Source: a virus (taxonomy: Duplodnaviria > Heunggongvirae > Uroviricota > Caudoviricetes). Taken from it: DNA of 31,069 nt. The stretch is taken from positions 1 through 31,069 of the IMG/VR virus record IMGVR_UViG_2778261543_000009; one strand, 5' to 3'. Below are positions 8,034 through 8,871 of the stretch, piece after piece. The first letter of the stretch is position 1. Every line of letters starts with the position of its first letter. The notes beneath the pieces are model-generated. The model was not told the origin of the DNA and made no database searches. It was given only the letters and a program-made list of their open reading frames with translations. The position numbers were made by a program, and so were the translations under genes.

Positions 8034-8061
8034 TTTACAACCGCGCCCAGTTGAGTATGAT
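8034..8061 (+). promoter_or_regulatory. Sigma70-like promoter candidate for the antirepressor gene
   Basis: TTTACA (8034-8039), 16-nt spacer, TATGAT (8056-8061); each hexamer is 5/6 to consensus; points at the antirepressor ORF with a leader of about 235 nt. Confidence 0.4.
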
Positions 8062-8301
8062 TAAGCGCATGAGGCGTCGAAACCTCTTCTCAGTGCGGTC
8101 ACAACCAACCCCGTTAGTGTTGGATTTTTTATGCCTGCTATTTAGTGATGGCACAATGTGCGGTCACATCCCCGAACAATGTCGGGAGGGCGACGAATAC
8201 AACACCCGAAAGGGGAATAAGTCCGCGGCCTCACTGAGCCGTTTCGAACCTCCCGGCTCCACTCCGATAGTGGAAATTCGAAAAAAATCAGTGAGGTCGT
8301 T

Positions 8302-8871
8302 ATGACAATACAATTAATCCCCGTTTTCAACGGAACTATCTCAAACGAAACCGCCCTACTCTGTAATGCTCGTGATCTGCACGCTTTTCTTGGTGTAGGT
8401 AAGGTTTTCGCAGCCTGGATTACATCCCGCATCGCAGAATACGGATTTACAGAAAATCAAGATTACATTTTGCTTTCCAAAACAGGAAAGCAATCGTTAG
8501 GAGGCAGAGGAGGACATAACCGCAAGGACTACCACCTCACCCTAGACACCGCCAAAGAACTGGCAATGGTCGAGCGCAACGAAAAAGGACGCCAGATCCG
8601 CCGATACTTCATCGAGTGCGAGAAGAAGCTGCGCGAAGATACCACCAGCACACAATCCCCTCTGAATGTTGACATCATCATGCGCGTCAGAAACGGCTCG
8701 GTTACCCACATTGAGCACCACAAATCAGGCTCAGTTATAACCACAGAATGGGCAATTCACTTACTACGCAAAAGTGGATGGATTGTCATGCCACGCGATG
8801 AACTTCTTAACACGCCACTGGCCCAACTGATGCCCGAAAACTTGCCTCAAACCGGAACCTGCGTCCGGTAA
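8302..8871 (+). CDS. Phage antirepressor-like protein (AntA/AntB-type N-terminal domain)
   Basis: 189 aa; N-terminal ...LLCNARDLHAFLGVGKVFAAWITSRIAEYGFTENQDYILL... resembles the AntA-type antirepressor domain; strong RBS GTGAGG 5 nt before the ATG; opposite strand to the surrounding tail genes. Confidence 0.55.
   Translation: MTIQLIPVFNGTISNETALLCNARDLHAFLGVGKVFAAWITSRIAEYGFTENQDYILLSKTGKQSLGGRGGHNRKDYHLTLDTAKELAMVERNEKGRQIRRYFIECEKKLREDTTSTQSPLNVDIIMRVRNGSVTHIEHHKSGSVITTEWAIHLLRKSGWIVMPRDELLNTPLAQLMPENLPQTGTCVR

Follow-up and report, generated by a model that had tools for sequence, protein, structure and literature searches.

In the annotated record of phage P1, the sites a1 and b1 lie ahead of the C4 RNA, which is followed by a2, by b2 over the ribosome-binding site of icd, and then by icd and ant. 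In the Rfam structure of C4, a closing stem is combined with hairpin 1, hairpin 2, whose loop is antisense, a linker that is antisense as well, and a CCACC tail. Phages P4 (seqA–CI RNA–seqC) and N15 (CA RNA) resemble the locus described here in that an RNA processed from the leader is complementary to sites both upstream and downstream of it in the same transcript. The P4 CI RNA and the N15 CA RNA control anti-immunity or replication genes, and their outcome is premature transcription termination, in contrast to the occlusion of a ribosome-binding site that we propose below. The immI region of P22 (sar/ant) provides a further parallel, in which a small RNA blocks the initiation of antirepressor translation. 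However, sar is encoded on the opposite strand across the start of ant, whereas the RNA of our locus lies upstream on the same strand and in the same transcript, and would pair through two short discontinuous segments.

An ‘IsrK-C4 immunity system’ has been recognised for P4, P1, P7 and N15 (PMC3632133). In Gifsy-1 of Salmonella (isrK–STnc1160/orf45–anrP), the short IsrK RNA activates the translation of its own read-through antirepressor mRNA, and a stable processed RNA lies downstream of the terminator (PMC4825925).

sRNA-Xcc1 is an integron small RNA of Xanthomonas campestris, treated as a virulence-linked trans-acting RNA with unknown targets. In Xanthomonas, an 88-nt RNA of the family was mapped by Northern blot and end mapping (PMC2996969). 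The sRNA-Xcc1 literature records that the RNA can lie upstream of symE or of an ORF6N gene. Within the searchable literature, the sRNA-Xcc1 papers describe neither adjacent a1b1/a2b2 sites nor a link to antirepressors, and we found no paper connecting the family with a C4-type mechanism.

Here, we analyze positions 8034–8871 of a 31,069-nt stretch of Caudoviricetes DNA (the window). We consider it likely that this region is a self-contained immI-type antirepressor cassette under RNA-level control, in which a C4-type antisense switch holds the translation of Ant off.

The ant gene and its promoter

In the list of open reading frames, ant occupies 8302–8871 on the plus strand and encodes 189 amino acids. 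Residues 22–93 match the Pfam AntA domain PF08346 (E 1.1e-25; 90.5 bits against a gathering score of 27), and the protein matches anti-repressor families of PHROG with E values from 1e-66 to 1e-54. The N-terminal domain is thus of the AntA/AntB type, and the C-terminal part is common to phrog_14211, a PHROG anti-repressor family. No solved structure related by sequence to the ant protein was found. The copy in E. coli C5, which is 99.6% identical, carries the RefSeq name ‘antA/AntB antirepressor family protein’. The label ‘antirepressor’ of AntA-domain proteins is mostly annotation. Ant would presumably inactivate a repressor; the repressor of the phage itself is encoded outside the window.

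All genes flanking ant lie on the minus strand and belong to the tail or baseplate. They include baseplate J (5953–7179), a late gene of phrog_7986 located between baseplate genes (8847–9194), the baseplate hub (10604–11611), and the tail fibres. The ant stop codon ends at 8871 and the stop codon of the phrog_7986 gene begins at 8847, resulting in an overlap of 25 nt at the 3′ ends of the two genes. The identical overlap occurs in phage Rac-SA53.

A sigma-70-like promoter locates at 8034–8061 on the plus strand, with TTTACA at 8034–8039, a 16-nt spacer, and TATGAT at 8056–8061; the predicted transcription start is near 8068. This is the best promoter-like site between 7000 and 10000, matching 10 of 12 positions. 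The motif alone is not significant, as four promoter-like sites were found and 6.5 were expected in shuffled sequences. The promoter is instead supported by its position, which is kept across relatives. All 15 close relatives in our alignment (alignment A2) have a TTGAC-type −35 element, a spacer of 16–18 nt, and a TAnnnT −10 element at the same place, 8–12 nt ahead of the first conserved hairpin of the leader, even though their promoters differ in sequence. We found no LexA box at or near the ant promoter, and SOS control of ant was therefore rejected.

These results agree with the preliminary description of the DNA, which had proposed an antirepressor-like gene on the opposite strand inside the tail operon, its 25-nt overlap with the gene at 8847–9194, and a TTTACA/16/TATGAT promoter upstream. 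The gene and the overlap were borne out by the domain matches, the minus-strand baseplate neighbors and the stop codon coordinates, and the promoter was found where it had been placed. Also supported is the claim that ant is probably a plus-strand unit of its own within the minus-strand late operon.

An sRNA-Xcc1-family RNA in the leader

The leader spans approximately 234 nt, from the start near 8068 to the ATG at 8302. Its predicted fold is more stable than those of shuffled sequences (z = −4.0; 0 of 200 shuffles as stable), and among the relatives in alignment A2 its conservation extends to invariant columns.

Positions 8181–8265 on the plus strand match Rfam RF02221 (sRNA-Xcc1) with 72.4 bits, above the gathering score of 53. 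The match is full length (model positions 1–87 of 87), with an E value of 1.5e-11 for the whole window. The RNA, of 80–85 nt, has a C4-like topology. A closing stem forms between 8181–8189 and 8249–8257. It encloses hairpin 1, with the conserved core AAUACAA...CCCGAAAGGGGAAU, and hairpin 2, in which 8225–8229 pairs with 8238–8242 around a loop at 8230–8237. The hairpin-2 loop presents the antisense segment b′ (8225–8237), and the antisense segment a′ (8241–8248) is provided by the single-stranded linker that joins hairpin 2 to the closing stem. Among close relatives in alignment A2, the scaffold of the RNA is invariant and the determinants are swapped.

A 3′ tail, UCCA (8258–8261), follows the closing stem. 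The 9-bp stem followed by U-CCA is suggestive of RNase P processing, and a CC-rich tail is present in 70–78% of 194 RNAs, which is only moderate conservation. Processing of C4 by RNase P has a precedent in the literature (cited in PMC4919922), and by analogy one may guess that RNase P excises the RNA of the window. For a family member in EHEC EDL933, RNA-seq yielded 40,293 reads, and ribosome coverage was low (PMC5331693). To judge from related Stx phages, this member presumably adjoins an ant gene.

Two other identities of the RNA were considered and rejected. Its 3′ part appears tRNA-like by eye; we rejected a tRNA, tmRNA or attachment-site remnant because ARAGORN found no tRNA or tmRNA and the full Rfam RNA occurs in many genomic contexts. 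The ‘microRNA-size’ RNA 24B_1 of the Stx phage phi24B, which is said to regulate d_ant, is unrelated, since the lom–vb_24B_43 region of phi24B contains no sRNA-Xcc1 match.

Upstream of the RNA, the leader begins with a GAGG/CCUC hairpin (8071–8086), the loop and 3′ side of which hold the site a1. A terminator-like hairpin follows at 8105–8130, with CCAAC (8105–8109) pairing with GUUGG (8119–8123), then an A and six U residues (8125–8130). The automated terminator scan missed this hairpin, which has a 9-nt loop. It is invariant in alignment A2, and a hairpin with a T-run between a1b1 and the RNA is present in 72 of 100 loci, compared with 15 of 100 in the reverse-complement control. By analogy to IsrK, it would end a short a1–b1 RNA of approximately 60 nt. 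A precursor hairpin just 5′ of the RNA (8146–8168) is seen in the minimum-free-energy fold; both of its arms vary in alignment A2, and by eye the stem is still possible. At the other end, a small CCACU/AGUGG hairpin (8259–8273) spans the 3′ tail of the RNA and occurs in most relatives of alignment A2.

Two further elements of the leader did not hold up. A stop-free frame at 8051–8305, overlapping ant by ATGA, might have encoded a leader peptide or an icd-like product. Among the 15 relatives, this frame is switched in phase or broken in about one third, and the point at which it ends shifts relative to ant; we regard it as a by-product of composition. A pairing between the hairpin-1 core and the leader terminator (GUGUUGG/CAACAC), suggested by the minimum-free-energy fold, was rejected as well: across 207 loci it showed no enrichment over reverse-complement or shuffled controls.

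Target sites on both sides of the RNA

Each antisense segment of the RNA has a complementary site on either side of it. Upstream, a1 (UCGAAAC, 8077–8083) is complementary to the linker a′, and b1 (CUCAGUG, 8089–8095) is complementary to the 3′ part of the hairpin-2 loop (8232–8238). Downstream, a2 (UUCGAAA, 8277–8283) is complementary to the linker at 8242–8248, forming seven pairs, and lies 5 nt upstream of b2 (8288–8300). Within b2, UCAGUGAGG at 8288–8296 is a perfect 9-nt complement of 8229–8237, and G–U pairs extend the helix to 8300, giving nine Watson–Crick pairs, or 13 with G–U pairs. The Shine-Dalgarno sequence GAGG (8293–8296), 5 nt before the ant ATG, is contained in b2 and is covered by this helix.

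The RNA is predicted to bind a2b2 with −16.4 kcal/mol; shuffled targets gave −1.1 ± 1.3 kcal/mol, and none of 200 was as strong. With the a1b1 RNA, the predicted energy is −8.0 kcal/mol (1 of 200 shuffles). The pattern TCGAAA-N-CAGTGAG occurs only at a2b2 and, reverse-complemented, in the RNA itself, and no occurrence is expected by chance. Other matches to the bipartite target of the RNA were not found in the 31-kb window, and further targets within it were rejected.

In an alternative reading, the leader acts in cis only, switching between a1b1:a′b′ pairing, which leaves the ribosome-binding site free, and a′b′:a2b2 pairing, which blocks it, with no processing of the RNA and no role in trans or in immunity. 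The minimum-free-energy fold of the whole leader does pair b′ and a′ with b2 and a2 in cis, the sites lie within 30–50 nt of the RNA, and the long transcript of Gifsy-1 is translationally inactive through cis structure. However, a simple cis switch has no need of the conserved closing stem or the strongly conserved hairpin 1, and RNAs of this family have been seen to accumulate as separate species of about 88 nt. Moreover, tandem cassettes of the same element differ in b and relatives swap determinants on an invariant scaffold, a pattern expected if cross-reaction in trans matters. We therefore consider a purely cis-acting leader unlikely, although cis pairing is compatible with the C4-type switch and does not compete with it exclusively.

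Co-variation of the RNA and its sites across loci

We applied an alignment-free test of pairing, in which the longest Watson–Crick run was recorded between an RNA and its own sites (‘self’) or the sites of other loci (‘cross’). The viral sample contained approximately 100 non-redundant loci, and the bacterial sample contained 83 loci from species-dereplicated genomes. In the viral loci, the mean run for b′/b2 was 6.80 for self and 4.09 for cross, and that for a′/a2 was 6.39 and 4.23, respectively. Against the upstream leader, the corresponding values were 7.18 and 5.30 for b′ (b1), and 7.01 and 4.90 for a′ (a1). None of 2000 permutations reached the self mean in any of the four pairings, and a control pairing of b′ with the wrong part of the leader gave no signal in these loci. 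The 83 bacterial loci gave the same outcome (0/2000 for all four pairings). In 79 of 83 loci, the 3′ end of b2 lies 5–12 nt before the start codon.

Alignment of the 15 close relatives revealed the same relation at the level of single pairs. For a′b′/a2b2, 85% of the cells were paired, compared with at most 62% when the partners were slid, and 19 cells had changed on both sides, against 8.6 in shuffles (0/500). For a1b1/a′b′, 90% were paired compared with at most 56%, and 19 double changes were seen against 6.8 (0/500). The a1/a′ helix is 99% paired, with compensatory changes in the relatives L034, L065 and L009, and the a2/a′ helix is 95.5% paired, also with compensatory changes. In b1/b′, six of seven pairs have changed on both sides, a value reached in 0 of 500 shuffles. 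Thus, the three copies of each determinant change together across approximately 100 viral and 83 bacterial loci. Tandem cassettes within one element have differing b determinants.

These data bear directly on the view that the leader is a mere remnant or spacer with no regulatory role, in which the promoter and the complementarities arose by chance. The count of promoter-like motifs, which does not exceed that in shuffles, would fit such a view. The Rfam match (E 1.5e-11), the invariant columns of the leader in relatives, and the co-variation (0/2000 and 0/500) speak against it; the comparative data already contradict it, and we give it almost no credence.

Genes downstream of the RNA

The gene downstream of the RNA is usually of an antirepressor type and sometimes the toxin SymE. 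In the viral loci (n = 100), the downstream domains were P22_AR_C in 17, KilA-N in 14, Bro-N in 13, AntA in 11, P22_AR_N in 10, ORF6N in 9, and Rha in 8. In bacterial genomes, Rha (10), Bro-N (9), SymE (6), P22_AR_N (5) and others were found. Besides Proteobacteria, the family has members in Acidobacteria, Bacteroidota and Planctomycetota.

This distribution can be set against the idea of a conventional small RNA that acts in trans on unlinked host genes and lies upstream of ant only incidentally. Such a role accords with the description of the RNA in Xanthomonas as trans-acting and under HrpG/HrpX control, and with the host and plant targets predicted in the literature. Yet the genes linked to it consistently encode toxins or antirepressor-like proteins, and the 31-kb window holds no second match to the bipartite target. 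Furthermore, across approximately 180 loci the variable segments change together with a pair of adjacent sites, whereas conserved host targets would constrain these segments. A conventional small RNA is therefore a very improbable account of this locus.

Comparison with known systems

Like the immI region of P1 and P7 (C4 RF01695 and c4-a1b1 RF03163, clan CL00128), our locus consists of a promoter, a1–b1, a terminator-like hairpin, an RNA, a2–b2, and an antirepressor operon. In P1, as in the window, the RNA lies in the leader on the same strand, downstream of the promoter. The C4 RNA also shares the pairing of its hairpin-2 loop beside the Shine-Dalgarno sequence, the pairing of its linker with a distal site, and a CC(A)-rich tail. 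Local resemblance exists between b2 of P1 (GUUAGUGAGG) and b2 of the window, and the b1–terminator segments are also alike. In a direct alignment, only these b1–terminator and b2/Shine-Dalgarno stretches were similar, which is too weak for common descent, and whole-module homology to P1 was rejected. The models of C4 (RF01695), c4-a1b1 (RF03163) and isrK (RF01394) have no match in 7950–8950 at E values up to 10, whereas the C4 and c4-a1b1 models both find P1. We therefore did not file the RNA of the window in clan CL00128. As far as the sequences can tell, its relatedness to P1 is one of architecture, and not demonstrable homology.

Several differences from P1 accompany this result. Hairpin 1 of the window is another, strongly conserved module (AAUACAA-N-CCCGNAAGGGGAAU), and the closing stem has 9–11 bp compared with approximately 17 in C4. 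The RNA of the window would gate ant directly, with b2 and the Shine-Dalgarno sequence immediately before ant and no icd-like coupling frame. The antirepressor is an AntA-domain protein, and no C1-type operator is known at the promoter.

Gifsy-1 makes a short terminated 5′ RNA and an antirepressor read-through mRNA from one promoter, the short RNA pairing with the long form and switching its translation, and our locus is predicted to behave similarly. By this analogy, Gifsy-1 is the best experimental model for the possible role of a1–b1 and its terminator. In Gifsy-1, however, control runs through orf45 and translational coupling, whereas the RNA of the window would act directly on ant, and the isrK model is unmatched. 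The scanned part of N15 contained no Rfam family at E values up to 1, and the N15 anti-immunity region was rejected as a direct relative.

Discussion

Our reading of the locus as a C4-type RNA switch is based on the match to the RNA family, the three-part layout, the complementarities with their co-variation, and the kinds of genes found downstream. We propose the following course of events. Transcription from the promoter at 8034–8061 would yield a transcript whose first 60 nt contain a1 and b1, followed by the terminator-like hairpin. [quoted passage not shown] The RNA would expose its two antisense segments, b′ in the hairpin-2 loop and a′ in the linker before the closing stem. Their partners would be a2 and b2, reached in cis while the leader is still unprocessed or in trans once the RNA has been excised; action in trans is what we infer. 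The pairing would cover the ribosome-binding site, and Ant would not be made. The net effect, judged only from the coverage of the Shine-Dalgarno sequence, would thus be repression. Meanwhile, the a1–b1 copy, in the same transcript or as a short terminated RNA, would compete for a′ and b′ and could lift the block, as IsrK does in Gifsy-1. Specificity would differ from cassette to cassette through the variable a and b determinants, as in the heteroimmunity of P1 and P7.

The preliminary description had anticipated regulatory structure in the long leader, and this expectation was confirmed in a specific form, an sRNA-Xcc1-family RNA with two copies of its target sites in the layout of P1 c4 and Gifsy-1 IsrK. 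The part of its regulatory proposal that concerned the leader therefore stands. The promoter as the main feature does not, since the comparative evidence points to post-transcriptional RNA–RNA control at the ribosome-binding site. The RNA that would exert this control had escaped notice in that description.

Beyond this locus, we lean slightly towards the view that sRNA-Xcc1 RNAs form a third lineage of C4/CI-type ‘RNA immunity’ switches, and a very widespread one, made up of portable cassettes in which re-programmable determinants gate dangerous genes. If so, a cassette would comprise a promoter, an a1–b1 decoy with a terminator, a scaffold RNA, and a2–b2 at the ribosome-binding site. The gated genes would be SymE toxins in integrons and, in phages, many unrelated types of antirepressor. 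Cassettes would fall into orthogonal specificity groups according to their determinants, and these groups would decide which co-resident prophages can silence each other’s antirepressors.

Antirepressors decide whether a prophage stays silent and can induce neighboring prophages. Understanding prophage stability in hosts with multiple prophages, such as Shiga-toxin E. coli, depends centrally on knowing how antirepressors are kept in check. The pairing code described here bears on the antA/antB cassettes of Stx phages and on the symE cassettes of integrons, and offers a natural, diversified set of orthogonal pairs of RNA and ribosome-binding site. For annotation, what RefSeq genomes show as a 332-nt ‘empty’ gap ahead of ant contains an RNA gene together with its control sites. 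sRNA-Xcc1 is annotated in many genomes and has been discussed as a trans-acting small RNA linked to virulence. Here it apparently serves as a local antisense switch with two sites, in the manner of P1 c4, which would give a family so far without a known target a mechanism of action.

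The ant gene, its setting and its promoter

The minus strand of the window is filled with late genes, encoding a holin, an endolysin, terminase, head and tail proteins, a baseplate hub, baseplate J and tail fibres. On the plus strand, ant (8302–8871) encodes a 189-aa protein, which the preliminary description regarded as antirepressor-like. This view holds, as the protein has an AntA domain (Pfam, E = 1.1e-25) along with matches to anti-repressor families in PHROG; going by family annotation alone, Ant would inactivate a repressor. The 25-nt overlap between the 3′ ends of ant and the minus-strand gene at 8847–9194, also described before, agrees with the coordinates and recurs in phage Rac-SA53. 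The same ant arrangement is present in Rac-SA53 at 86% identity and in the E. coli C5 prophage at 99.6% identity, and at least 80% of the ant segment is found in 42 of 5426 complete E. coli genomes. The Actinobacillus phage vB_Apl-pPE4 (38372–38885) shares 86% DNA identity with the C-terminal half of ant and the start of the overlapping baseplate-region gene, an unexpectedly close match for an A. pleuropneumoniae phage, given that the hosts belong to different families. As phage cargo, ant is of an ordinary kind; the interest lies in its leader.

The best promoter-like site near ant is TTTACA-16-TATGAT at 8034–8061 (+), the candidate promoter proposed earlier. Promoter-like motifs around ant are no more frequent than in shuffled sequences. 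However, all 15 close relatives in our alignment keep TTGAC-like −35 and TAnnnT −10 hexamers at the same position, 8–12 nt upstream of the first conserved leader hairpin, and the promoter sequences differ. It is this positional conservation, not motif frequency, that supports the promoter. An inverted repeat, CATACT...AGTATG (8029–8034 and 8054–8059), flanks the −35 and overlaps the −10 hexamer, and could be a putative operator. Within the alignment, it is common only to the window and one relative (L037), which has the same promoter.

Between baseplate J and ant, an AT-rich gene (7222–7968, minus strand; GC 0.30–0.34, flanks about 0.50) codes for a protein of 248 aa whose N-terminus resembles a signal peptide. 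This protein has a weak Pfam LprI match, and its homologue is named ‘lysozyme inhibitor LprI family protein’ in RefSeq. The promoter-like site of the AT-rich gene (8025–7998, minus strand) lies back to back with that of ant, with 8 bp between the −35 hexamers. In Rac-SA53 this place is taken by two other plus-strand genes, which makes it a variable cargo slot. An AT-rich stretch with a baseplate gene on either side contains two paralogous small minus-strand ORFs (9202–9381 and 9468–9674), which both match phrog_6632 and share hydrophobic C-terminal stretches (...GE(K/R)(F/L)PNWKFLLIW...IRW(W/R)). Rac-SA53 has a single 45-aa ORF there, and E. coli C5 an intergenic stretch of about 250 nt with no annotated gene; the pair has the look of a small cargo gene duplicated locally in tandem. 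Elsewhere in the window, the genes for a TET-associated glycosyltransferase (27217–28170, minus strand; Pfam TAGT, E = 1e-35) and the adjoining ParB_N-domain protein (28142–28933, minus strand) stand between those for lysis and for the small terminase subunit, and may belong to a module for DNA base hypermodification.

The leader encodes an sRNA-Xcc1 RNA and two copies of its pairing sites

In RefSeq, the closest genome has nothing annotated in the gap upstream of ant. An 84-codon ORF at 8051–8305 (+) runs stop-free across the leader and overlaps the ant start at ATGA. An open frame of about 90 codons also occurs in 10 of the 15 relatives, but the phases differ, and we therefore judged it non-coding.

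Searched with all Rfam models, the window gives only one match, sRNA-Xcc1 (RF02221) at 8181–8265 (+), which covers the full model at 72.4 bits (gathering score 53). The RNA consists of a 9-bp closing stem (8181–8189 with 8249–8257), hairpin 1 (8195–8220) with the strongly conserved core AAUACAA-N-ACCCGNAAGGGGAAU, hairpin 2 (stem 8225–8229 with 8238–8242, loop 8230–8237) and a single-stranded linker (8243–8248), with a UCCA tail after it. At the hairpin-2 loop, CCUCACUGA (8229–8237) is the exact complement of UCAGUGAGG (8288–8296), a target that holds the ant Shine-Dalgarno sequence GAGG, 5 nt upstream of the ATG. With G-U pairs, this match reaches 13 bp. The linker UUUCGAA is complementary to UUCGAAA at 8277–8283. 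Because the C4 RNA of phage P1 has the same topology and order, we adopt the P1 names: a′ for the linker, b′ for the loop, and a2 and b2 for their downstream targets.

Second copies of both targets follow the promoter. The a1 copy (UCGAAAC, 8077–8083, plus strand) lies in the loop of a small hairpin directly after it, and b1 (CUCAGUG, 8089–8095, plus strand) comes next; 3′ of them lies an intrinsic-terminator-like hairpin with U6 (8105–8130, plus strand). In the 31-kb window, the bipartite target pattern is confined to these places. The predicted binding energy of the RNA is −16.4 kcal/mol with the ant 5′ region, against −1.1 ± 1.3 with shuffled targets, and −8.0 kcal/mol with the a1–b1 RNA. 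The suggestion that the long leader carries regulatory structure is thus borne out by an sRNA-Xcc1 RNA and two copies of its complementary sites.

Pairing segments co-vary across phages and bacteria

Using the hairpin-1 core, we gathered two sets of at least 120 loci each, one from viral contigs and one from species-dereplicated bacterial genomes. In an alignment-free test, the antisense segments of each RNA were compared with its own leader and with those of all other loci, scoring the longest Watson-Crick run (about 100 non-redundant viral loci, 2000 permutations). The mean run of the loop with the 25 nt before the start codon is 6.80 for cognate and 4.09 for non-cognate leaders, and that of the linker with the 5′ part of the downstream leader is 6.39 against 4.23. 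For the upstream copies, the values are 7.18 against 5.30 (loop/b1) and 7.01 against 4.90 (linker/a1). None of the 2000 permutations reached the cognate mean in any of the four pairings, and a control pairing in the same test gave no signal. The outcome was the same with the 83 bacterial loci that could be used. The distance from the end of the Shine-Dalgarno-proximal site to the start codon is 5–12 nt in 79 of 83 loci, and a hairpin with a T-run separates the upstream sites from the RNA in 72 of 100 loci, compared with 15 of 100 reverse-complement controls.

Among the 15 close relatives (MAFFT alignment), no variation occurs in the RNA scaffold, the a1 hairpin or the terminator hairpin, whereas the pairing determinants vary, changing jointly at all three places. 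RNA and downstream sites are 85% paired, against at most 62% with slid partners, with 19 double-change cells compared with 8.6 in shuffles (0/500); upstream sites and RNA are 90% paired, against at most 56%, with 19 such cells compared with 6.8 (0/500). These sequence comparisons strongly support functional pairing of a′/b′ with a2/b2 as well as with a1/b1.

The most conserved part of the RNA is the hairpin-1 core, AAUACAA-N-ACCCGNAAGGGGAAU. This core is not involved in the antisense pairings, and its complementarity to the leader is not enriched. An identical core occurs in enterobacterial phages and in genomes of Pseudomonas, Xanthomonas, Bartonella, Desulfovibrio, Acidobacteria, Bacteroidota and Planctomycetota. 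It might bind a protein, direct processing or form a tertiary motif.

A probable C4-style switch

The P1 immI region (GenBank record) has the same order of promoters, a1, b1, the 77-nt C4 RNA, a2, b2, icd and ant, and its b2 covers the icd ribosome-binding site. The Rfam C4 topology likewise matches the window RNA: closing stem, hairpin 1, hairpin 2, linker and tail (CCACC in C4), the hairpin-2 loop pairing with the Shine-Dalgarno-proximal site and the linker with the distal one. The isrK model, too, has a below-threshold match in P1, at the a1–b1 region plus terminator. In Gifsy-1, one promoter serves both the short IsrK RNA and a read-through mRNA that encodes the antirepressor AnrP; short IsrK activates translation of the long RNA, and a processed RNA, STnc1160, lies downstream (PMC4825925). 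The window has every architectural element of this IsrK-C4 class. However, the C4, c4-a1b1 and isrK models have no match in the window, and sRNA-Xcc1 stands outside their Rfam clan. The leader RNA would work like a C4 system yet cannot be filed as a C4-family member.

Since the pairing covers the Shine-Dalgarno sequence, and given the P1 precedent, the outcome is probably repression of Ant translation. Relatives and the orthogonality pattern tilt us somewhat towards an RNA that is excised and acts in trans. By analogy, RNase P might process it, a tentative proposal, and the short a1–b1 RNA might, after IsrK, be an activating decoy.

Genes linked to the RNA elsewhere

Most of the 100 non-redundant ORFs downstream of viral RNAs have an antirepressor-type domain (P22_AR_C 17, KilA-N 14, Bro-N 13, AntA 11, P22_AR_N 10, ORF6N 9, Rha 8); the remainder encode small proteins without a Pfam match. 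The bacterial counterparts are Rha 10, Bro-N 9, SymE toxin 6, P22_AR_N 5, ORF6N 3, KilA-N 2 and AntA 1. Stx phages have two tandem RNA+ant cassettes: in that of Shigella phage 75/02 Stx (locus L125, at 325–413 and 865–950), the first gene encodes a truncated, 95-aa AntA. Tandem RNA+gene cassettes also occur at three further collected loci (L066, L072, L213). The b determinants differ between tandem cassettes, as expected if each RNA controls only its own gene.

In a group of GC-rich viral contigs (e.g. L010, L014, L017, L041, L048), a conserved ORF of about 80 aa (MPHGAPSTPGN...) without a Pfam match comes after the RNA, and a2 is in the loop of a long hairpin. [quoted passage not shown] There, the RNA would be like a type I antitoxin.

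sRNA-Xcc1 has been treated as an 88-nt trans-acting small RNA with an unknown target (PMC2996969), and it was noted in passing that in APSE phages it precedes an ORF6N gene. In EHEC EDL933, a member is abundant (40,293 reads) and has poor ribosome coverage (PMC5331693). A 2025 review of phage small RNAs covers c4, sar and IsrK, but not sRNA-Xcc1, and no paper in the literature searched links sRNA-Xcc1 to the C4 mechanism, an absence that is not proof. In the ant leader, the sRNA-Xcc1 scaffold probably serves as a C4-style RNA switch, of a kind that is widespread and has apparently gone unrecognised as such.
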